Positions 2,981-64,000 of a stretch of DNA of 64,000 nucleotides are shown in pieces. Made by a program: the position numbers and the translations under genes. The first letter of the stretch is position 1. Each line of letters starts with the position of its first letter. Under the pieces are notes generated by a model. That model was not told the DNA's origin. It made no database searches and saw only the letters and a program-made list of their open reading frames with translations. This DNA comes from Hydrolagus affinis (Eukaryota): assembly GCA_012026655.1 (NCBI GenBank), contig JAAILG010000217.1, forward strand, positions 1-64,000, given 5' to 3'.

Positions 2981-4903
2981 AATATCCAACTGACTAGGAA
3001 CAGGCTGTGTGACCAACTGACTGATCAATTCGGGTCAAGCTGTGATGGACTAAGTGACTGATCAGACTGTGTGACTGACCGACTGCCTGATCGGCGACAA
3101 GCTTTGTGACCACAGCACCAGTGATAAAGAGTGGGGCATGAGGAGCGGGGGTAGAAGGGTAGAGTATATTTTTAATCCTCTGAGGAAAAGGCTGACCAGC
3201 GAAAGGGTCGAATCCACCAGGCAACATCGCAGGAATTACAACAGGGAAACATGGACTATAGCTAAATAAAAAGGAGTTAGTTCTTTTTGAAGTGAACAAT
3301 TTGATTTCTTTTTGACACTGGCAACACATATTTCTATTTATAACCCACAACACATCCCATGTCCTATTTTTAAACGTTTTTTTCTCTCCTTTTAAATTAG
3401 CACACTTTACAGATGTTTCCCATTATAAAAGTGCAGAAGTAGAGGTTTGGAGTTTAATCTGAGCGCTTCAGCAGTTGGGTAGCCCTGTGCGTGTGTGTGT
3501 GTGTTGACAGTGTGTAAGCTGTGTAGTGACGCACTTGTTGAAGATGCTGTTGCTGCCAATACTGGAACTGCTGTGGTCAGCACATTGGAGAGAACAATGG
3601 AACTGTAGTAGGAAAAACGCCAGACTCACATCTCGTCACATCCCTCACAATGCTTGCCTCTAGATTTCATCAGAACGAAACAAAATATTTCTGCACAAAG
3701 AGTGCAGTTCTAGATTTCATACTGGATTGTGGAATTACAATGTCCTTGTCTTGTGCCAAACGGTTTCGGGGGTAGGAGGGGGTGCAGGTCTAGACTTTCC
3801 AATTGATTTGTTTTAATGGGTGCATATATATTGTCTTGAGAAGAACTTTTATCACGTTGGAAAAAGTTAGTAAATTAGTGGAAGGAGAGTGCAGATAAAA
3901 GAGGATGTAGACCCACACAATTTATGACTAATATGTGTAAGAAAACATTGACTCCTTACTCATCTTTGAATGGCATCAAGACTGTCCATTGCTGCTTTAC
4001 TTCAGTTATTTTATCACAAAACCAGCTGCTTTAAGACTAAGATTAGAGGCGGCAGGAGTGTGTAACATTGCCATGGAATCTATCCAACAATGACAGCATC
4101 AGCTTTTATACATTTGAGCTGTAAGCAGGTGGGCTGCTTAGCAGAAAAATCTTCTGTATTAGGATACATTACAGAGTTGATAAAACACAGATGTATCCTC
4201 ATCACACTTTAATGAAATGCCCAGAATTGATCAGAAGTACATTTGCTAAACAGTTTTGAGAGCTGGAAGTCATTTGTGTTATGCTCTGAAGTTGATTATT
4301 AGCCAGAAATATAATTTGGGATAACTCCCTCAGTTGTAAGAATAATCAATATCAGAATTAAAATCCTGCAGTATCTCTGTTGCTACCCAGGCCAACATCA
4401 GATAATTCAACAAACACTAAGATTGAACCAGCAGGAGATCTTCCAGGCCTGTTTGAGTTCAATTCACTGGCAGTATATTCACTCATTGAAACTTCAAGTA
4501 AATGCTCCTTGAACAACTTGAGTGACCACAAAATCTTAAAAGATTTAGTTTTACAGATGTATTACTACTTGCAATTGACAGTTTTACACAAACAATGTGA
4601 AGCACTGGGTGCTAGTCAAAGCCTTGAAGTTAAGCAGATAATGTTAACTAGAAGTATTCAGTGCGTGATTCCTGGTGACATTTTTATTCATCCATAATCA
4701 GTCAGTGATAACAAGGCTAGATTTGTTTAGCTACTTTTTAATTGTTAAATCACAGAGAATTAAGTAATTTAATAAACACCGCTATTATTAAAATATTTTG
4801 CATAATTTATTACCTACAAGTCATCTAATAATAAAATATATGTCCATGTGCTTAATGTAAATGAGACATACATATTAATTGTTTCTTTATTTTTCTCATG
4901 TAG

Positions 4904-4974
4904 GACAACATGCAGTCAGTTTCAGTTCCACACGCTGACTGACAGAAGAGAAGGTTGTGAAGGAGTACCCAGGC
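4904..4974 (+). other. BCL2L11: 5' part (UTR) of first coding exon of BIM-like gene; contains uORF 4910-4942 (MQSVSVPHAD*)
   Basis: Polypyrimidine tract tttctttatttttctcatgtag| ending at 4903; in-frame TGA at 4936-4938 upstream of ATG 4975. Confidence 0.7.
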
Positions 4975-5290
4975 ATGTCACGAGGTGAGCTTCCTGGGCA
5001 AAGCGATTTCCGTATTAACACGACATGCGAGAATATCCAATTGTCACCGACCTTCATTACAACTTGCCCATTATTCAATACGAATTTTTTTCGTACACCA
5101 CATTCCCCTGTTTCCCCATCTTCGAGAACCGGCAGGTTGTCCAGTGGATATTTTACTTTTGATGTGGACATCGGACTGATGGCTAAACCCACGAGTTGCG
5201 ACAAGTCTACACAGACTCCAAGCCCAACCTGCCAAGCCATCTACCTTGCACGTCAAGCTCTGGCACAGACACCGCATTCGCAGACTCATG
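4975..5290 (+). CDS. BCL2L11: BCL2-like 11 (BIM), first coding exon (BimEL-type)
   Basis: Encodes SPTFITTCPLF (cf. BIM SPGPFATRSPLF), LSSGYFTFD (cf. SSSGYFSFD degron) and SCDKSTQTPSPTCQA (LC8-binding KSTQT motif). Donor G|GTAAGA at 5291, phase 1. Confidence 0.92.
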
Positions 5291-8200
5291 GTAAGAATCT
5301 CCTTCTTTGGTGTCTGGCAGAAAGTTAGCCAGAAGTGATGGTCATTCGGTTCAGAAAGTTACCGACATACACATCTGATAAATCTCATAATTTAGCTTAG
5401 ATCTCAATGGTAATGATCTGAACTAACTTTACAAAATAGAATGTAGCCGAGACCTCAATCAAATGTGTTCTTTGTTTTTTTAGATGAATATAGGATATAT
5501 GTAAGTGCTTGTATACCACAACTGCTCTCAACCAGAGGTTTAATTATAGTAATTGGACCGATGAACCTTTGCAGGTGTAAACAGTGAGATTTCCCTCCCT
5601 GGCACCTCCCTGCCTCTCCGACCTCCTCGCCATGCGGCAATTCGGCTCAATTGGCACCAAACTCCTGCTTGTCCCTCACCACTGTTAAGCGTTCTGAGAT
5701 GCTACTCTGAGTGGAGAATGCTATAAGTGTGCAAGTTGCTATTGTTGATAAGGCGGTACCTTGGATTTACATCTATTTTAAAGACACATGGTACACTATC
5801 CGTAACTACAGCAAATGTAGGGTTCTTTTCGATCAATGAGATGTTTTGGACAAAAATTGCTTGGCTTTACATGGGGGAATGTTCAGTGCATTTCTCAAAT
5901 ACTGTATATGAAGATTTAGTTTACACAAAGTGACCCCAAAATGCGGATATACTATGTCAGTTATCTAATTAAAGATTAGATCACACTTTATCTCTAAATC
6001 TGGTGAACGCATTCTAACCTATATTCAACCATTTCTGAAGATCGACAAATAAACAGTTCTTGGAAAAGTGTGTCTTCATTCGTAACCGTGAACATGAAAT
6101 AATGGTCATGAAGTGTAGTAAACAGTGTGTGTGAAAGGAGTACATCTGAAAAGCACACCATTTAACTTTCCAGTTCTTTGAAATCGTTATACTACTCGAT
6201 GACCATTTAGTATTTTTCTTCCATCAATGACTGCATTTAACATTGAATTAGACCCCTGAGGTAAAGGTTTTGTTATTGTATGAATAATAGAAGTAGGAAA
6301 AGATTGTAGTGTAGTCAAAATATAGGTGGGGACTTTTTGTGCTGAGTAGACCAGTCCTATATGATACTCAGACATCACAATAGGCTGTTTTTGTTGGCCA
6401 TTCCTTCACTGTTTTAGCTCTATCAGATTTGATTTGTTAATTCACATTCATAGTCTTTCAGATACAACCATGCACATAAAGAACAATATTTTCTTTCATA
6501 CAGTACTAACCAGCAATTCCAAAGCAATGATGTATATGATAAAATAAGTTGTTATGTTGAGTTAGTGCATGTATTTGGGGAGGGAAGTATCTCTGGTTTA
6601 TTGTTAAATACACAGTACAATAACCAAACATAATTGTGGAAGTTAAGTCACAGATAATGCAATGTATTAACAATGATCCCAAACATATTTCAATAATGAT
6701 TATACATAGAGAAAAGGAGTATATAAATGTGATTTGGTGAGTTATAAGACCTGCCTTTGAAGTCCTGGAGGGTTTTGGTTGAAGCAAAATACTAAAAGGT
6801 CGGCAAAACAAAAATTAAGTACTATATCAGGGGAATTGTAAACGTGGATCAGTTTTCAGTCTTGATTAAGTTTCTAAAAAGAATAGCGGACTAAAACTTG
6901 ATATTGCTGCCAAGATAAACATTTATCTTCACATTTTGCACTATGGTTGAATGCAGCTGTTCCAATAGTTTTGGGTCTTTCTTTGCCCGGAATGAAGAGA
7001 AATCCAAGAACAGTAACCCAGGTATTGATCCTTATTTTCTATTAGATCTTAAAGCCCACCATTTGGTAATCGATCTGGGTTATTAGTCAGGGTCAAGGAT
7101 GGCTGATGGCTTTATTATAGCATGCTAGTGCCTACTATTCCTGGTTATGTTTGCCTTTGCTTTATCCTAGTTGAAAGTGCATGTTTTGGATAATTGCCAG
7201 TTAGAACTTGAGGCTGTTCAAACAGCCATGACAGCAATAAATAAAGCAGGCAGTGTTTTGTTTTCTTCAAATAGAACTAAATCCAAGCAATGAAGTATTT
7301 TTCATTAACATTAATTACTCCTCTCTTTTTTATGATACGCTGACCTCACTTTTCCTATTGTGAAGGAACGATTACAGTTCTACTGAGATTTATGGGTAAC
7401 GTTAATGATAACAAACCTTGTATTTGATTGCAGGTTGCTCTATCGGTGTAAAGCATGCCCTATCTGATAGAACTTTTTACACCTGGGAATGTCAGTAAAG
7501 AAAGACAGATTTCCCCAGGAAGCAATGATGTATAACCAATAATTCTTGGTAGGACAATAACGCTATAATTAGAGATTTAAAATGACAGCTCAGACAAAAA
7601 TAAACACACAACATAAACAAATACCACAAGGACTAGCTTCCCACATGGCTAGGAGAGCTCTGAATATAGCCCATTTCATTCAAACAACATTTCTACAATA
7701 TGACCACTTGTTTCTATTACTAAATGAATTAATAAAGTAATATTAATGGTGGTATCTCATTGAAATAAATGAAAAGGCTTTGGTCCTCCTTTTAAGAAGC
7801 TGTTTTATTCTGCAGCATAGTAAGGTAACATAATGACATTTTTCTTATGTAATTAATCTTTTTTCTTTGGGTTTTCTTTGGCTCTATTAATGTCTGAAAG
7901 TAGTAACGATGACTGAGGTTTTCACACACCACAAGCTGATGCAATATTAAACATCTTTAGGGGCCTATGACACACATATGGGACTGGTTAATGTCAGACT
8001 TCTGTGCAATACAGTATAACTACAGATTAAATGGTGCCTCTTTTCTGCCTTGCTAATTGTATCTTGTGTCTGTCTTTTTTGGTGTTGCCACAGAAAGGCC
8101 TTTCCGAAAGCCCCAGATTAATTTCACTATCAACCACTTAACCACAGTATTAATTTCCTGAATTACCTAGCTTTTATTGGTATGATGTCAGCATGGGGTG

Positions 8201-10085: not shown

Positions 10086-10812
10086 TTACTATTCTTGCTG
10101 CTTGGGTGAGGTACTGAAGGATAGGTACTGTAACACCAAAGAAACATAGTGACAATGTTTACACCAACATGTGTAAGCAACTTTTAGCAGAGAAGGAAGA
10201 GAGAAGTATGGAAGAAACAAATAGACTATATGTTATTTTGATAATGCATAGTGGTGAACGGTTGTACACTTTTGCAATCTCTTGCCATTGATAATGACCC
10301 CCAAATATTAAAAAGATACATAACTAAAGTGCAGTAAATTGTTCTCCACAATTGTGAAGTGACTTTTGCAGTAAAATCAGTCTCTATGTTGGAATCCTAC
10401 ATGGAGAAGAAGGAAAAACACTTGGGAAGTTCGAACTTAAAATACCAGATTTGGGTGCTGAAAAAACAAAAATATTATTAAAATCCCACCATAGTAGAAT
10501 GATTCTTGATAATTATATCAAAGTTCTTGCATTTAAATATTTAAATATTGCTCTGTTATCCTGCAAATATTGTGAATGTTTTACCCTGTTGTGTGAGTAG
10601 CGTTTAAATTTTTTTAAAAGGAAATGATTTTATATGTATTCACACGAAGGTCAGTGCTGAGTTCATGATGGAGACTTATAATAATAATAAATGTTTACAA
10701 TTGATATAGGACTTTCATGTCAGGGGAACAAAGTGCTTCACAAGATAAATTGTAAAGAGTGTAATGACTATTGTGTAGATGAACACCAAGATGTGGCAAC
10801 TGTCCTATCACC

Positions 10813-10849
10813 AGTTCTGACGAAGGGTTATAGACCCGAAACGTTGACT
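10813..10849 (+). ncRNA. Minimal type I hammerhead ribozyme motif (sense to BIM pre-mRNA)
   Basis: AGUU-CUGACGA-A-GGGU(UAUAG)ACCC-GAAA-CGUU-GACU: intact CUGANGA and GAAA cores, 4-bp stem II, stem I AGUU/GACU, palindromic AACGUU in place of stem III. Confidence 0.72.
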
Positions 10850-10950
10850 CTTTTTCCTTTCTCCATGGATGCTGCTTGACCTGCTGAGTTTCCCCAGCAA
10901 CTTTTGTTTTTGTTTCAGATTCCCAGCATCTGCAGTATTTTGTGTTTTGT
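10813..10950 (+). mobile_element. Penelope-like retroelement terminal-repeat fragment (138 bp) with 8-bp TSD
   Basis: Flanked by ctatcacc at 10805-10812 and 10951-10958. Near-identical copies at 20971-21106 and 23817-24050. Begins with a hammerhead motif as in PLE pseudo-LTRs. Confidence 0.8.
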
Positions 10951-11313
10951 CTATCACCTCTTGTGTTCTTCCATGCCTATAGGCTCTGCATCTTGAAATC
11001 GCATCTTCTTCAAGTGTTTATTTTATATAACCAACAAGTAAATTCAATATAATTACAATATGAATTGTATATTTATATAGAGTCTTTGAAGTCCTAAAGA
11101 GCTTGACATTGCTGGCTGGGCACCTGAGTTGGGGTGGGAAGAACCAAAACAGCCAAAAAAGAAACAAGTTGTCTGCCTTCATACACATTAGCCTGCACCC
11201 AGTCTGGACCATTCATGCAGAAATTACTTTCATATATCTTACACTCACAATTCACACGCTTAGTGCTGCCACTGCAAGAATGTTTGCATTTTATTTTCTG
11301 ATTATTTTTGTAG

Positions 11314-11453
11314 GTGGAAACTCGAACCGACAGGCTACAGGTGTTGAGGAAATGCCTCAACCGATACCCATCAACATGCATGTGGAGCGGTTGATCGGCC
11401 AGGAGCTACGGAGAATCGGTGATGAATTTGATGTTCTCCATCGATTACCAATG
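11314..11453 (+). CDS. BCL2L11: BIM BH3-domain exon
   Basis: Acceptor ttttattttctgattatttttgtag|, phase 1 matches upstream donor. Encodes VERLIGQELRRIGDEFD (BIM BH3 IAQELRRIGDEFN). Donor ATG|GTAAAT, phase 0. Confidence 0.95.
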
Positions 11454-20700: not shown

Positions 20701-20970
20701 ACAGTCATGGAAGACATCTCTGGGACTGGACTCTTTACCTACTAATTGTGCAGATATTAATTTTATCACCTAATGAGTCTATATGTTTGGGTATAAACTA
20801 CAATGATCTCTAATTGGATTCCATAACTAAAGAGGGGATTGTTGTGATACGCTTAAGGATTGCTTCCTTAAGGAACTTGGGAATACTATGACTATGTCAC
20901 TATGACTCGTGGGAACTACCCCCAAATCTACCTACTTTCGGAGCAAGGTTCACACAAGTCAATATGATGC

Positions 20971-21106
20971 ACAAAACACAAAATACTACAGATGCTGGGA
21001 ATCTGAAACAAAAACAAAAGTTGCTGGGGAAACTCAGCAGGTCAAGCAGCATCCATGGAGAAAGGAAAAAGAGTCAACGTTTTGGGTCTACAACCCTTCG
21101 TCAGAA
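20971..21106 (-). mobile_element. Penelope-like terminal-repeat fragment; hammerhead core mutated (GAAA to AAAA)
   Basis: Reverse complement of 10815-10950 with 3 substitutions by my count. Confidence 0.8.
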
Positions 21107-21620: not shown

Positions 21621-23816
21621 ATTGGCCGAAAGTTTAGCCAATTTGCTTGGCTGATACTCTAGGCCAATGCAGTAAACAGACGTCTGGCACAATATTACAA
21701 TGATGTGGAGCCTCACACAACTACTATACTTCAGTTCTACTTCTCAACTGGGGAACAATTCATATTGGATTGGCAGGTTTTATGCTTTGGCACATTCGCC
21801 TACAATATACACAATCACTCCCCTTTTATGGCTAATCCTGTGAAGTGCTTTGAGACATCATCACCCAATGTGAAATGTACCATATAAATGCAAGAATTAT
21901 TCTTAATATTATCTGGGAAAATGCAAGAGGGAAATAGTAAATGAAAAAAACAAGCTGATGGAAAGGACGATCAGTTTATAACTGATGGAACTAATAAGGT
22001 ATTTAGCATTATGTAAATAATAATCCTTACATTTGATATAGCACCTTATCACATCATCGAGAGGTCTCAAAACACTTCACAGCATTTTGCTTGCTGTGCA
22101 ATTGTAGACAAAGACCAAGAAAGGGGAATTTCAACTAGTCTTTTTATAAAGAATCCTCTGCAGTTAAGATAGTGCAGTCAGCTACGCTCTATTTGAGACA
22201 AAGAAACTGAAATTCTAGCAAAATGTTTTTGAGATATTTCGAGAACAATAGTAAAGCCTTTGCTTGAATTTTAAAAAGATAAAAATCTTTTATTGTAAAT
22301 CGGGCTTCAACTGCTTCCCCAGGAATCACGTTCACAAAACACATTTCCTCACCGCCTCTGCAGGGGAAATGCCCACTCGCCATCACAATCCCTTTGTGCC
22401 AAACTAGTTCACTTAAGCCAATACTAGAGGGCCACAAACACCAGCTGCTGTCGCGAGTTTGTGCTGTGGGTCTGCAGCTTTAGCTGACGAAACCTGCTGC
22501 TCCCACCCCCATCCAGACATTGCGTTGGCTGAGTAAGTTGTAATCATGTGAGAATGGCTGGTGTAATTAGAGAAAGGGCTAAATATACAATAGACTGGTG
22601 AATATATTTAGAGACATTTTCTTCTCTCAATAGTGTTTAACTATTGTGTCTTTTCCATATTTATCAATATCGCTCTTTTTTGTTTAAACACAACACACAA
22701 TTTACATTTATACAGCACCGTTCACGTTGGGAGGCTGTCTCAAAGTACATCACACAGCTGACTGCAATTGTTTTCACAATGGATTTGCACGTGGCAAACC
22801 CAGAGTAGTTAGCACTTCAGTCTGGCTGAAGATGGAAGAACTGAGAATAACTCATGAATAAAACACTGTGCAGTTACTGTGAATATAGCCTAAACCAGTG
22901 GTGATTTTGCCCACAAAATACATAGTCAATTCACTGTACAGTATATTCTGTGTAGAGCTTTGAGAAGTCTCAACACATGATAAGGTGCTTTATCTAAAGC
23001 AGGTACTATGATGAGAGTTACCGTGAGAGATAGTGAATAAACTCTTGTTCACTTTTTGCTACTAAAATCCTAGGTGATTCAGAATCCTGTCATGTGCTTA
23101 GAAATAGTAAGGTATTATTTTCACAAGAAGTAGTGTGGTGGTATAGTGGTGAAGATTATTTACAGCTAAGCATCATTAACAGATTACATCAAGGCAGATG
23201 TGTTGTCTTAATTACAACCACTGAAACGTGTGTGTGACCGTCAGATATACCCAGAGTTAGGCTCTCAATAAAATATTTGATTCATTATGAAACAAGAGGG
23301 AAATGCTTTTGAAAAAAGCCTAAGGCAGTGATGGCCAACCTTCAAGGTTGGTCAATAAAATAAATATTCTTGATTAAATACTTCAAATGTATGCAATAAA
23401 TCAAGAAATATTCAATCAAGAAAGAACTGAAAGCACACTACTGATTGAACACAACTTACCTAGACTCATGCAAATGTTTTTTTTGGGGGTGGGTGGGGGG
23501 GTCACTTCCGGCCTGCAAGCAACAGGTTGGCCACCACTGGTCTATACTGACACTCCAGTGCAGTGCTGGGGTGCATTGCGTTTTAGGAGGTGAGGCAATA
23601 AACCAAGGTTCTGTCTGCCTGTCTGATGGATGTTAACAATCTCATAGCACTATTTGATAATGGAAAGGAATTATACCACAGTGTTCTGACCAACAATCCC
23701 CCAGATTAAATTGGTCGTTGACTTCATGGCTGCTGATAGGATATTGGTCTGTGAATATTGACTGCCATATTTGCTTACAAAATACACAGACGCCATACTT
23801 GACATTATCTTCTTTG

Positions 23817-24050
23817 ACAAAACACAAAATACTACAGATGCTGGAAATCTGAAACAAAAACAGAAGTTGCTGGGGAAACTCAACAGGTCAGGCAGCATCC
23901 ATGGAGAAAGGAAAAAGAGTCAACGTTTCAGGTCTACAACCCTTCGTCAGAACATGACGAAGAGTTGTAGACCCGAAACGTTGACTCTTTTTCCTTTCTC
24001 CATGGATGCTGCCTGACCTGCTGAATTTCCCCAGCAACTTCTGTTTTTGT
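23817..24050. mobile_element. Head-to-head inverted pair of Penelope-like repeats with 13-bp TSD (1 mismatch)
   Basis: Left arm 23817-23953 and right arm 23955-24050 are reverse complements; flanks attatcttctttg (23804-23816) / attatattctttg (24051-24063). Confidence 0.85.
23919..23953 (-). ncRNA. Minimal hammerhead ribozyme motif (antisense to BIM)
   Basis: Minus strand GUU-CUGACGA-A-GGGU(UGUAG)ACCU-GAAA-CGUU-GAC; cores intact, stem I only 3 bp. Confidence 0.6.
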
Positions 24051-25291
24051 ATTATATTCTTTGATGCGCTTTGAAATGTCCTCCCTACGTGAAAGGTGCA
24101 TTATCGAATCCAAGGATTGTTTTCCACTATGGAACTGATTTTTGTGTAAGGCTTTTATTAAACTTTTATTCTTTATCACCCTCCCCGAATCCATGTGACT
24201 AGAAATGGGCCACCTATAGTTAGGATTCTTCCTGGATTCTTAAACAAATTCTTAGCCTAGTTTGTGATGTCATATATAAAGGAGTTTGAGTGCAGAGTGT
24301 AGCCTCACAGCAATGGTGTGGCAAAGTCTACATAATATGTCCGAATATGATACAGATATTGTCAATCGCCTGGATGCTCAATTCTTCTAAGTATTGCAAC
24401 CTTGACAGTGAACTCTTGACTAGCAACATGCAGTCTGTATATTGCTGTCCACAATTGGCTACCACGTTTTGCCCACAAATATACAGTCAATTCTCTTTAC
24501 AGTATATTCTTGAAGATGTGAAAAGCGCTATATCAAATGCAAGGATTATTTTACTGATTCATCATTGTTCCTACTGAAAGAACACAACAATGAACGCAAT
24601 TCTCTACTTATAAACTGCTTTAATCTTTCATGCCAGTAATTTTATGTTTCCAAATCAAAATATGGTGTAGCGTGGGTGTAAAAAAAGGATTCCGATAGCA
24701 AGTAGAGTTTTACTTCAGACCCACTGAAATACATCTGAGAGTAACCTGTTCCATACGCTTAGCAGAGGATCAATGTAGTGTTCACTTGACAAGTCCTTAA
24801 CAACTATTACTACAATGACTTTGCCTTTCCCATCCTATTGAGTCTAACATCAACAAATTGTGCATAGAGTAGTTATAAAATTAATCCTGCAATTTATGTG
24901 TATTTATTCCAGAAGATGGTAGAGTACTAATTAGAGCTGTGGTTATATTTGATGGCCAAGCTTGATTTAGAAAAAGTTTCATTTGATCCTCAAGTTTCCC
25001 GCCCCCACTTCTTTAGAGAGTCTCTGACTTTTTTCTTTCTACTGAGGTACAGTTCCATAGTAGTTAGTCATTCTTTGGTTCCTTGCCCGAGCAGCCATTA
25101 TTTATATACCAACCTTGACAGGAAATGTTGGCGAGCTATTTGACCATGAGAAAGAAAATAACATTCTAAGCATCTGTTCAGTTTAATACATATTAATTTT
25201 AATTTTGGGGGGGGACGGGAAAGGAAGGGGAAGAAAGGATTTTTAAGTTTACAAAACCTAACAGAAACATCTAACGTCCTTCCAATTCCAG

Positions 25292-35120: not shown

Positions 35121-35886
35121 CAGGTATCCCCTGATTTATGAAGATTCGATACGTATTTTCGATTTAACTAAAGTAAATTTTTTACAACTTTTTTCGATTT
35201 ACGATATTTTGTTTCATTTTAACGAAATTTTTAAATTGTACTTGATTTTTTCTGTGCAGTATANNNNNNNNNNNNNNNNNNNNNNNNNNNNNNNNNNNNN
35301 NNNNNNNNNNNNNNNNNNNNNNNNNNNNNNNNNNNNNNNNNNNNNNNNNNNNNNNNNNNNNNNACGCAGTATATCTAGTACAAGCTGTTGAACTGGCATG
35401 TTGCTCCGTCATTGTTTACATGACGTCAGGTGGTTGCCGGTTGCCGATTGGATGAGGCCCAGGTGATCCCCAAGGCCTCGGGGCTCACGTTGGGTCCTGT
35501 AGCCATTGAAGTGGAAAACTGCGGCAATGAAGACGCCGGATCTCTGGGTAAGCCTAGCCGGAGATACCACTCCCCTGTGAGCCGCTCTAGACGCTGGATC
35601 TGTTCACGGTACGGGACCCGCTCGACTGCGACCGAGAGCCTCGGGACCCGCTCGATGTGATATTAAACTAATTATTCATTAATTAAATTCTTTAAGTCTC
35701 ATTATTACTAAATGCTTTGTTGCAAAGTGTTATTTTAGTGGGTTTTGGGTCTGAAAATTTTATCAAAAGCACGCACCTCGGATTATATAATGGGACCATA
35801 TGGGAAAACCCGTCCCGAGTTACGTAATTTCGATTACATAACGATTTTTCAGGAACGCAACCCTTTCGTAAATCGAGGTTCACCTG
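35121..35886. mobile_element. Tigger/pogo-like (Tc1-mariner) non-autonomous DNA transposon
   Basis: Imperfect TIRs CAGGTATCCCCTGATTTATGAA / revcomp CAGGTGAACCTCGATTTACGAA (16/22). TA TSD at 35119-35120 and 35887-35888. Spans an N gap, so continuity is inferred. Confidence 0.7.
35264..35363. other. Assembly gap (100 N)
   Basis: N run. Confidence 1.
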
Positions 35887-39920: not shown

Positions 39921-40268
39921 GTCGTGTAGCTTACTGATGAGAGCTCTTGCCTCTCAAGCGAGAGGACCCGGGTTCAATTCCCAGGCTGAACAAAACGTTA
40001 GGCAAGTTTCCTTACTCCACATGTCTCTTTTCCCAGTACATAGTAGAAACCCAGTTGTTAGTGGATTGGCAGATTTCATTTCCGGAGTTAAAAATCTCTT
40101 AATTTTTTTTAAGATTGGTTGCTCAATTCACGACTGTTTGTTAGACACTGCTTTGCACAATTAGCTGTAGCATTTGGCCCACAAAATATACAATTCAATT
40201 CACAGTATATTTTGTGAAGTGTTTTGAGAAGTCTCAAACACATGATATCAAATGCAAGAATTATTATC
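39921..40268 (+). mobile_element. Full-length tRNA-SINE, longer (older) subfamily
   Basis: gtgtagctta...ggttcaattccc head; extra ~70-bp segment at about 40022-40090 absent from young copies. Confidence 0.8.
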
Positions 40269-42589: not shown

Positions 42590-44185
42590 ATATAAACCAA
42601 AAGATTTGAATGAAGATGACGGGAGAATTTTTTTCTCTGGTTGAAACCAGTGTCCAGCCATCAACAACAAAAATAACTATTAAGGATAACGGGAAACGCA
42701 GAGTTGAACGAAGAATGAGCAAAGAAGAGGGGAGATGGCTTCTCCCCAAAACACAAGCAACAGCTGCCGAGATTGAGATTACTGATGGATACACTGAGGG
42801 CTTGGCACATTGTGAATACACCTGTCGAGGAGCTGCATCAGCCCTGCGTGAGGGACTGGATGGGAAACTACATCAAGGCAATGAAGAGCTGCCAAAAGCA
42901 GACACCCTCAGGCAAATCTATGTTCCAAAGCTGCGAAAATGGAATGGCAGAGCTTCGCACAGCTGTGCAAGGGAAGGTGTCAGCAGTTGTGAGCAGTAAA
43001 GGACAGATGTAAAAGACTGTTGCATTCTGAAAATGTTTTTGTTTTCGACTGGACAGAGGAGAGGCAGATTTTGCCACCACGACTGAGTTTCCAGCAGTGG
43101 CCTAAGCAATGGTGGCTCAAGCCTATCTGAAGAATGGTTCATAATCACAACGTTGAGATCATGAACATTGTTGCTTTTGTCAACAACTGTGCTCTCTGCA
43201 TGATAAACGTGCTGCGATCAAGCAGCTCTAAAAGCGGGAATGCTGCTTGCTGGTCACTCACTGGAGGAGATGTGTGGCTCAACACCTATTAAGACACTGA
43301 GTGAATGGGTTTCACTGGCAAAATATGAGTTTCCACAACACGCCAAAGCGCAGGTTTCATTATTGGTTCAGGAGATTTGCTAGAAGGAGTTGGTTGCTCT
43401 GCTGCAGTTCTCAGAAGCAGTACGGTACCATTCCACACTTGTCATACTTCTAGCTCTTTCTCATCATCTTGACGTGCAAAACCAGATTACGAACTCCAGT
43501 CGTAGAAGTCCTAGAACTCAGCGTAAGGTCTGTCTGGCAGCTGCGCCGTGTGGATACCCTGACCTCATCAGACACACTTTGAGCTGCTAACTTTCCCAGC
43601 TTTCCTTCAAAATCAAATGTTTGACAGCTCAAAGGGAAATGTGTCTGAAAGGAAAATCAAAGGCTTCACAACAAATTAAAGGAAAAAGTGATAAATCAAA
43701 AGCCCCACTGCTGATCTACCTTAAGGCCATTGCAGAACGATTCTCAGATGCAGTTAGTTTGATTATTGGAGATGAATCACAAAGCTGCTCTGTAATGAAC
43801 CTGGCAAGGTCGTCTTCACAACAATTCTGTTTTCTGCAATAGCCTTAAGGTAATGAGCTGTGACAGGGCCGACCCAACACATTAGTAGGTGCTGGATGTG
43901 TTTGCAAATCATGTGTCCAAACGAGCTTTAGGAAGTGGGCCAGGCTTAAGAATCCACTTTCTGATCCACTACAATAAAAGTTTGGATACCCATGTTCTAA
44001 ACACAACACCATTTTGGCTGCTTGTAGAAATGGAACCTCAAATTGAGAGACCCCTTTCTGGATAGTCCAGCAAAGCAAAAACTTACGCAAGGATACAACA
44101 AGCAGAACAAATAATAACTCATAACTGAATCTCAGGAAAATGCAGAAATTCACACTCTGAGAGAACCACAGCAATGTTTTTCTAA
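42590..44185 (+). pseudogene. Decayed CGGBP1-related hAT DNA-transposase fossil
   Basis: Frameshifted fragments in order: KDLNEDDGRIFF (cf. CGGBP1 ELHEDGGKLFC), NTPVEELHQPCVRDWM, ELPKADTLRQIYVPKL, NVEIMNIVAFVNN, FSEAVRYH, CRNSHSERTTAMFF. Many stops; TIRs not found. Confidence 0.7.
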
Positions 44186-46388: not shown

Positions 46389-46707
46389 AATAATAATAAT
46401 CCTTGCATTTTGATATCGCGCTTTTCACATCTTCTAGACTTCTCAAAGCGCCTCACAGAATTTACTATAAAGTGAACTGACTGTATATTTGTGGGCGAAC
46501 ACGGCAGCCAATTGCACACAGCAGTGTCCCACAAACAGTCGTGGATTGAAATGACCTATTTATTATAGTTTTTTTTTTGATGGATCATTATTAGGCCTGT
46601 GGAGTAAGGAAACTAGCCCAAGGTTTCGCTCTGACCCATCTGGATTCGAAACACAGGTCTCACACTTGTAAGGCGAGTGCTCTAACCACTGAGCTACAGG
46701 ATTCCAC
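46389..46707 (-). mobile_element. Full-length young tRNA-SINE
   Basis: Antisense head (ctctaaccactgagctacaggattccac), B box ggattcgaaac, (aat)n tail. Confidence 0.92.
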
Positions 46708-47827: not shown

Positions 47828-47927
47828 NNNNNNNNNNNNNNNNNNNNNNNNNNNNNNNNNNNNNNNNNNNNNNNNNNNNNNNNNNNNNNNNNNNNNNNNN
47901 NNNNNNNNNNNNNNNNNNNNNNNNNNN
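47828..47927. other. Assembly gap (100 N)
   Basis: N run. Confidence 1.
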
Positions 47928-47995: not shown

Positions 47996-48309
47996 ATAAT
48001 AAAAATCCTTGCATTTGATAAACCGCCTTATCATGTCTTCTAGACATCTCAAAGCGCTTCACAGAATATACTGTAAAGTGAATTGACTGTATATTTTTGT
48101 GGGCAAAACACAGTAGCCAATTACTCACAGCAGTGTCCCATAAACAGTGTGGGTTGAAATGACCAGTTTTTTAAATTATTTTTGTTGAGGGATTATTATC
48201 AGGCATGTGGAGTAAGGAAACATGCCTAAGGTTTCACCCTGCCTGGAATCAAACCTAGGTCTCTCACTTGTAAGGCGAGAGCTCTAACCACTGAGCTACA
48301 GGACTCCAC
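47996..48309 (-). mobile_element. Full-length young tRNA-SINE
   Basis: Same structure as 46389-46707. Confidence 0.92.
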
Positions 48310-62399: not shown

Positions 62400-64000
62400 A
62401 CCCACCACAAACCATCTCCTCTGTCCGCCCTTTCACACCTCACCCATCCTATCCTTCAACTCCAACTGCAAGGAGATGCTGGACTTCCTCGAATCTAAAA
62501 TTGAGGGGATCCATTCAACTACCTCTACTCCATCCACCACTAAGTCCCCATCACCTCTCCCTCAGGATCCATCAACCTCCCATCCCCCATTACACACCTT
62601 TGACCGAATCTCTCCCTCCACCCTATCTCTCATTCGAAAAATTCAAGCCTGCTCCCTCGACCCCATCCGCACCTCTATCCTCATCTCCCAGCTTCACCTC
62701 CTAGACACCTCCTAACTGACATCATCAACCTTTCCCTAACCATCAGCACTGTTCCCACCCCTCTATAAACAGCTGTCATCATCACCATCCTGGAAAAACG
62801 TTCGCTGGACCCATTCCTACTCTTCAGCTACAGTCCCATCTCCAACCTCCCATTCCTCGCTAAGGCTCTGGAATGAGTCATTGCTTCCCAGCTTTGCTCC
62901 TTTCTCTGTCACCATTCCCTCTTTGAACCCCTACAATCCGGCTTCCACGCTGCCTATATAATGGAGATAGCCCTAGTCAGTCTCGAATGACATTTTAAAC
63001 ATCTGTGATCAGGGTTTTTTCTGCCTCCCTGTCCTCCTTGACCTCTCTGCTGTCTTCGATACTGTCGACCACTCCATCCTCCTACACAACCTCTCCTCCC
63101 AGCTCAATCTTCACAGACCTGCCCTTACTTGGTTGAACTCCTATCTTTCTCACCGTCTCCACTTTGTCGCCAGCAATGGCTTCTCTTTCAGCCCCTGCAC
63201 TGTGGCATTCCCCCAGGGCTCTGTGCTTGGCCCCCTACTTTTGAATATCTACATGCTCCCCCTTGGCAACATCATCCACAGACATGGGGTCAACTTCCAT
63301 ATGTATGCAGATGACACCCAACTCTATCTTTCTGCTTCTACCCTCGACTCCATGACCACTGCTGTCCTGGCAGTCTACTTGTCAGACATCAAGTTCTGGA
63401 TGAGAGCTAACTTTCTACAATTGAACGTCAACAAGCCCGAGGGCCTCCTGATTGGCTCACACAGGCGCCTTCACACATCAGGTTCCGGCAGCATCAACTT
63501 CCATGGTTGCACTTTCAACCTCACCAAGCCAGTCAGGAACCTAGGTGTCTTATCCGATCCTCAATTGCCTTTCCTCCCCTACATCCAAGCCATGACCCGT
63601 TCTGCCTTCTCTCACCTCTGCAACATTGCCCAACTCCGTCATTACCTCACCCCTCAGGGCGCTGAAACCCTCATTCATGCCTTCATCATATCTAGGTTCG
63701 ACTACGCCAATACCCTGCTTGTTGGCCTTCCCAATTCGTCCCTCCATAGGCTACAGATCATCCAGAATTCTGAGGGCCGTGTCCTCTACTGCTCCAAGCT
63801 TGGCGACCCCATCTCCCCCATCCTCGCCCAACTCCATTGGCTCCCCATCACCCAGAGAATTCAATTCAAGATCCTGGTCCTCACCTTCAAAGCTCTCCAT
63901 GGCCTTGCCCCCCACTACTCCTGTGACCTCCTAACCCCCTACCACACTGCCCACCCACTTCGCTCAGCAGGCTCCAGCCTGCTCCATGTCCCCCAACCCA
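62400..64000 (+). mobile_element. L2 (CR1-group) LINE reverse transcriptase, pseudogenised; runs off window end
   Basis: CSLDPI, PISNLPFLAKALE, LQSGF, LDLSAVFDTVDH, QGSVLGP (63214), YADD (63304-63315), WLPITQRIQFKILVLTFK; frameshifts and stops present. Confidence 0.93.

Follow-up and report, generated by a model that had tools for sequence, protein, structure and literature searches.

The window analysed here, a 64,000-nt stretch of Hydrolagus affinis DNA, contains the host gene BIM (BCL2L11), three exons of which were placed with mutually fitting splice phases, and, in its introns, four arms of one family of inserted elements. Three BIM homologues were found, in one shark and two rays (55-66%); a PDB search with the BH3 exon gave 0 matches. 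The features under discussion are as follows.

4975..5290, + strand: BIM coding exon 5' of the insert, containing the DKSTQT motif (tblastn with catshark BIM; splice phase)
10805-10812 and 10951-10958, no strand: 5' and 3' copies of the 8-bp target-site duplication (TSD), CTATCACC (direct reading)
10813..10950, + strand: Penelope-like element (PLE) stub, the pLTR end with hammerhead and tail, element positions 1-138 (sequence comparison with the family)
10813..10849, + strand: minimal type I hammerhead (direct reading and descriptor scan; features as in PMC4209133)
10918..10950, + strand: tail of ~33 nt between the two 3' end points of the family, at element ~105 and ~138 (arm end counts)
11314..11453, + strand: BIM BH3 exon, 140 nt (Pfam Bclx_interact, E=1e-7; tblastn; phase)
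20965..21106, - strand: second copy of the family, in the next BIM intron, 96% identical, core G12 changed (sequence comparison)
23816..24059, both strands: two-armed head-to-head insertion with a 13-bp duplication, one mismatch (sequence comparison)
23816-23953, - strand: antisense arm, with tail, of the head-to-head insertion
23955-24059, + strand: sense arm of the head-to-head insertion, without the tail, the stem I 5' strand and C3
25292..25393, + strand: BIM last coding exon (tblastn E=0.004, 51% over 35 aa; acceptor scan; phase)

Elsewhere in the window, four tRNA-like Rfam matches (2676-2740, 39927-39984, 46632-46703 and 48234-48305) are likely heads of a tRNA-derived SINE, and a 341-codon open frame at 62977-63999 encodes a LINE-type reverse transcriptase (RVT_1 E=4.5e-18). 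A long low-complexity C/A-rich repeat with strong negative GC skew lies upstream of BIM (~140-1900), two 100-N assembly gaps are present (35264-35363 and 47828-47927), and exon-like open frames at 35429-35662 and 42610-42996 have no Pfam match.

The sequence upstream of the BH3 exon had been predicted to be a 138-bp insert with a perfect 8-bp TSD, ending ~360 nt before the BH3 acceptor. Sequence inspection bears this out: the insert occupies 10813-10950 on the + strand between the two direct repeats, and the distance to the acceptor measures 355-363 nt. The 5' junction can be placed only to within 2 nt, because the last two C of the 5' repeat also match element sequence upstream of +1. Among the matches listed from four DNA-type contig sets there was no joint skipping the insert, and contigs cannot show absence of an empty-site allele; the TSD call is therefore based on the repeat and on the pattern seen across the family. 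Within the stub, two acceptor-like AGs follow pyrimidine-rich runs (10907-10918 and 10930-10935) and are candidates for cryptic 3' splice sites of the BIM intron; the one at 10907-10918 falls on the inner of the two 3' end points of the family. The three further arms in the window all lie within the next BIM intron, as one antisense single and one head-to-head pair, so that BIM holds two sense and two antisense arms.

The 5' part of the insert is a complete minimal type I hammerhead, with both cores and stems I and II on the BIM sense strand as originally predicted, by direct reading and descriptor scan alike. Stem I pairs a 5' strand at 10813-16 with a 3' strand at 10846-49; between them lie the core CUGACGA (10817-23), an extra A (10824), stem II (10825-37; 4 bp, or 5 counting a U-G), GAAA (10838-41), a C-G (10842-43) and the triplet GUU (10843-45), which places the predicted cut at 10845/10846. 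The features of the minimal form are all present: a CUGANGA...GAAA core with an NUH triplet, a short stem I, a stem II closed by G10.1-C11.1 and a single extra nucleotide after A9. A descriptor comprising the core, a 4-bp stem II, paired 15.2/16.2, UH and a 4-bp stem I had one match in the window, which is this hammerhead, and 0 in 100 random windows drawn from a dinucleotide model. The Rfam hammerhead search that the original prediction proposed returned no match, either at gathering score over the whole window or at E<=10 over 10500-11300; this null is not evidence against the motif, since the Rfam models miss the minimal form. A palindromic stem III had also been proposed, and one is present, with 15.2/16.2 paired and no loop 3, but its extent was overstated as AACGUU: the flanking A and U are core positions, and the intermolecular stem III of an active dimer would therefore consist of ACGU only (10841-10844; 4 bp). 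GUU is a weaker cleavage triplet than GUC, and it is the majority triplet of the family (H17 is U in 104/106 arms).

The motif closely resembles the minimal hammerheads described from the pLTRs of metazoan PLEs by Cervera and De la Pena in 2014 (PMC4209133), with which it shares the type I core, the 4-bp stem I, the extra nucleotide between 9 and 10.1, G10.1-C11.1, the palindromic 15.2/16.2 without loop 3, the pLTR seat, and the occurrence of thousands of dispersed single copies together with opposite-strand pairs. It differs in its stem II, of 4-5 bp against 7-8 bp in the Schistosoma families, and in its GUU triplet. That account thus already covers the motif class, its location in the pLTR and its dispersal both as single copies and in opposite-strand pairs; the available text does not name cartilaginous fishes, and the supplements may list such families. 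A literature search on Penelope hammerheads in sharks gave, judged by the listing, nothing on the present family. Type I hammerheads on the sense strand of host introns are also known in amniotes, where HH9 and HH10 are single-copy, canonical and deeply conserved. The stub is like these in its type and in its place on the intron sense strand, but is multi-copy and minimal, is the end of a recently spread transposon and has no Rfam match.

The family is abundant. A 29-mer from the 3' half of the stub has 2,976 exact matches in the genome (control 0), the hammerhead with stem II left free has 2,602 (control 0), and the intact 35-nt hammerhead has 767, a lower bound for intact copies. Lengthening stem II by 2 nt gave 0 matches genome-wide; shortening it by 1 nt gave 53, all deletion variants of the stub family, and a further hammerhead family of that form was rejected. 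The genome-wide listings also hold subfamily variants with T for A at +1 or with C at +4, which turns a stem I U-G into C-G, as well as a sister subfamily whose stem II loop differs.

Some copies extend upstream into common sequence encoding the end of a reverse transcriptase (RT), a CX4CxxC linker and a GIY-YIG domain. The ORFs are all broken, and the profile scores lie just below cut-off (RVT_1 E=3e-6, 27.5 bits against 29.6; GIY-YIG E=7.5e-4, 20.2 bits against 22.6), while the YIDD and YIGET motifs are seen directly. In 11 of the 12 loci picked for the ORF end the stub follows directly downstream, and its identity with the ends of the long copies that carry the ORF is 90-99%. One locus, L126, is a partial tandem consisting of element 61-138, the ORF and the full 3' repeat (unit 3,069 bp), a layout that was clear in one of 20 long loci examined; oriented with the ORF, its positions 3621-6767 (G000:C11589) hold a near-full-length, broken parent copy. 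The placement of the stub behind the RT/GIY-YIG ORF and the pLTR layout in L126 uphold the proposed origin from a Penelope pLTR, and by its sequence the parent is an endonuclease-positive PLE. The linker between RT and endonuclease (EN), CQRRRCNTC in loci L010-L122, has the form CX2-5CxxC described as a feature of Neptune and Nematis (PMC8557442); from this linker the parent is likely to belong to the Neptune clade, Nematis being the alternative.

The anatomy of the insertions was taken from 94 of the first 100 listed matches to the 29-mer (two matches in the window and three at the end of the list were among those left out), which represent 80 sites and 126 arms. The sites lie on the largest contigs and were chosen by the 29-mer only, not by their 5' ends; arms that belong to one insertion do not count as independent. 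The 3' ends fall at two points, 58/126 arms ending at element 94-113 and 63/126 at 129-138. Head-to-head insertions with two arms make up 43/80 sites, 40 of them with the tail on one arm only, and a duplication of at least 8 nt flanks 52/80 sites as against 1.9% of 800 mismatched-flank controls. The BIM copy is of the single-arm, tailed type, to which 11/80 sites belong. As side observations, the 8-nt TSD sequence recurs after a T-rich run in the upstream pLTR of the element, ~200 nt upstream of the hammerhead (L008, L015, L021 and L026), and copy L030 is inserted into the pLTR region that holds this TSD-like sequence, by coincidence or by target preference.

The combination of tail, inverted arm and TSD is the footprint described for PLEs (PMC3846280). 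Units of endonuclease-positive PLEs (Arkhipova 2013, PMC3846280; Craig 2021, PMC8557442) have in common with the present family the 30-40-nt tail on one arm, the head-to-head inverted copy, a TSD of 8-15 bp, the partial tandem and solo pLTRs. Here, in contrast, most units are only 105-250 bp long and their 5' ends are piled at the 5' edge of the hammerhead, a pile-up not found described in the available text of these two papers. The non-LTR retrozyme is organized differently, as head-to-tail tandem units each with a hammerhead (bioRxiv 10.64898/2026.07.22.740005), whereas the BIM site holds a single unit. A further close parallel is Poseidon_Ac (PAc) of Anolis (Frangieh 2024, PMC11167929), in which two internal RT start sites bound the tail; by analogy, the two 3' end points of the stub family match these start sites. 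According to the same report, both target strands are cut and extended, the hammerhead is dispensable for insertion and cleaves only with the protein of the element, no RNA reads end at the cut site, and unprocessed RNA is the insertion substrate. PAc belongs to the Penelope/Poseidon clade and has its start codon at stem II, whereas the stub family carries the CX4CxxC linker of Neptune/Nematis.

The 5' ends are sharply distributed. Among the 126 arms, 72 start at -2..+11, the 5' edge of the hammerhead, 4 at 30-38, around the cut, and 23 further upstream; in a second listing of 100 copies, 53 start at -2..+4, 46 run upstream and one is unclear, and the modal start, used by 26 of the 53 edge-starting copies, is the C just before +1. 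The contrast between 72/126 edge starts and 4/126 near the cut implies that the inserts derive from uncut RNA. Copies beginning at the ribozyme cut site were rejected on the latter count. Also rejected was a splice junction at the AG of +1/+2: copies begin most often upstream of the AG, they have no visible upstream exon in common, and the variant with T at +1 starts at the same place. No cap-derived extra G was evident by eye at the 5' junctions of the listed copies.

The simplest reading of the pile-up, tentative and a little short of an even call, is that transcription starts at the 5' edge of the hammerhead and that the stubs would be strong-stop-like run-off cDNAs of ~105 or 138 bp. The evidence from the junctions is indirect, microhomology blurring their exact position, and the position used most often is the C that precedes the initiator A. 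An initiator-like sequence, CCAGTT, is present at +1. PLE promoters are reported to sit in the pLTR (PMC2377424). Against a start site at this place counts that of Drosophila, which is further from the intron end and the hammerhead. A strong-stop or run-off cDNA model for Penelope pLTRs was not found in the literature search.

An insertion such as that in BIM could then arise as follows. The GIY-YIG endonuclease of the element would cut the target with an 8-nt stagger, and RT would start at the outer of two internal start sites (element +138) with the uncut transcript as template. Priming at the 5' copy of the start sites would give a run-off cDNA of 105 or 138 nt, RT stopping at the 5' edge of the hammerhead, most likely because the transcript starts there. 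The landing of the stub in the BIM intron would likely be a matter of chance. In Xenopus, ~42-44% of related non-autonomous PLE derivatives are reported to be intronic (bioRxiv 10.64898/2026.07.22.740005).

Nothing sets the BIM copy apart from its siblings. It departs from the majority sequence of the family at 4/138 positions, one of them in loop II and none in the core or stems, and median arm divergence is 3.3% (112 arms). Non-CpG core positions are changed in 21/840 cases (2.5%), compared with 65/2509 (2.6%) in a downstream control, and the CpG core positions G8, G12, C15.2 and G16.2 in 65/405 (16%). The hammerhead core thus decays at the neutral rate across copies, with selection seen in neither direction. 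Of 80 arms covering the motif, the core is kept in 40, and core, palindrome and stem II together in 22; with neutral decay of this extent, intactness at ~3% divergence is nothing unusual. In the stems every change is one-sided, U-G becoming C-G in 10/72 arms in stem I and in 3/99 at the closing pair of stem II, with no two-sided change; covariation is not expected in a family that is young and decaying neutrally. Contigs X5 and X6, from another sample and a second organism (~2% flank divergence), have the same left junction as BIM, with 30 nt of the element covered, too short a span to judge conservation; the insertion is therefore neither fresh nor transient, which fits neutrality and could also reflect retention. 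That the BIM copy is fully intact and sense-oriented was counted against the neutral reading. On balance it is very probable that the stub is an end-piece of an abundant Penelope-like retroelement, brought into the BIM intron likely by chance, with inactivity and neutrality predicted for it there.

Folding predictions bear on the inactivity. In the monomer the core GACG is predicted to pair with CGUU (p 0.88-0.99), and in a 338-nt context stem I and stem II form with p~0.03 and p~0.19; folding z-scores are unremarkable (motif -1.19, insert -0.95). The strand-swapped active dimer is computed at -9.5 to -11.3 kcal/mol, compared with -18.4 for a pair of folded monomers and -22.7 where the dimer misfolds, and is thus predicted to be 7-13 kcal/mol less stable than misfolded monomers or misfolded dimer; these nearest-neighbour energies omit the tertiary core of the hammerhead and any help from protein. 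In the published PLE minimal hammerheads the monomer did not cleave, and dimers and trimers had low activity, weak even when tethered in cis (PMC4209133); a review that covers the work of Lunse et al. 2017 on dimer cleavage (PMC6765202) agrees. The earlier caveat that a monomer may be inactive is therefore well taken, inactivity being probable where the core is predicted to be self-paired and published monomers remained uncleaved. In the BIM pre-mRNA, stem III would be unable to form in the monomer, the core would pair with itself, no intact sense partner would be available in the same transcript, and the intron would be spliced out uncut.

Whether the stub nevertheless acts on BIM can be weighed along two routes. 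Cutting of the BIM pre-mRNA at 10845 in trans with a transcribed copy, maybe helped by protein, would lower BH3-containing BIM, and the means appear to be at hand in an intact set of core nucleotides, both stems and the ACGU palindrome, in at least 767 intact partner copies in the genome, and in the in vitro cleavage of PLE hammerheads as dimers or with protein. Yet the core is predicted to misfold, the partners would be held by only 4 intermolecular base pairs of stem III (-1.7 kcal/mol) and stems I of 4 bp, the published rates are weak even in tandem constructs, no sign of selection on the core is seen among copies in either direction, and the sole other sense arm in the BIM transcript is without C3 and locked in a hairpin of ~100 bp. 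Cutting within an intron, moreover, often leaves exon-defined splicing working, and trans-cutting is judged highly improbable. A duplex spanning the BH3 exon, between the stub and the antisense copy at 20965-21106, which could lead to exon skipping, back-splicing or A-to-I editing, finds support in the two introns flanking that exon, which share no high-identity inverted repeats other than the stubs: three of four blastn matches between these introns are family copies, two of them inverted (95-96%), and the duplex with 20965-21106 is predicted at -250 kcal/mol, around an exon whose 140 nt are not divisible by three. The partners, however, are 10 and 13 kb away, the second of them is sequestered in a hairpin of its own, and in so abundant a family such pairs must often arise by chance; RNA stretches so far apart seldom pair as a rule, and splicing of the upstream intron may come first. 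Looping of the exon is very unlikely, and taken together the idea that the stub tunes BIM, by trans-cleavage with sibling copies or element protein or by BH3-exon looping, and so couples BIM output to Penelope activity, is very unlikely. The suggestion that the hammerhead matters for BIM is not supported: it is one of many intact copies, its core decays neutrally, the active dimer is predicted to be less stable than the misfolded forms, and published dimers are weak, the Anolis one needing the protein of the element.

A different alternative concerns the family rather than the gene, namely that the short copies form a SINE-like or retrozyme-like family in its own right, with a short RNA of its own as the source of amplification. 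Copies that are short and have nearly fixed ends do dominate (72/126 arms), and non-autonomous PLE derivatives have been described (bioRxiv 10.64898/2026.07.22.740005), but the high identity of the stub to the long-copy ends (90-99%), with the same two 3' end points, ties it to the parent; there is no head-to-tail tandem of short units at the BIM site, and the cut site, where cleaved monomers would begin, is not where the arms start. Independent amplification is most improbable, and origin of the stub as an end-piece of the retroelement is preferred.

The hammerhead in the BIM intron is real and intact but ordinary, another copy of a motif class published in 2014, and as found the stub matters little. 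Were it to tune BIM after all, RNA would be the means by which a mobile element controls an apoptosis trigger, and the intronic copies of this genome would supply candidate regulators by the thousand. As a family the copies are of modest use: their sharp 5' end point and two 3' end points form a large natural data set on PLE replication, pointing to uncut RNA as the template and to a transcript start site that can be tested.
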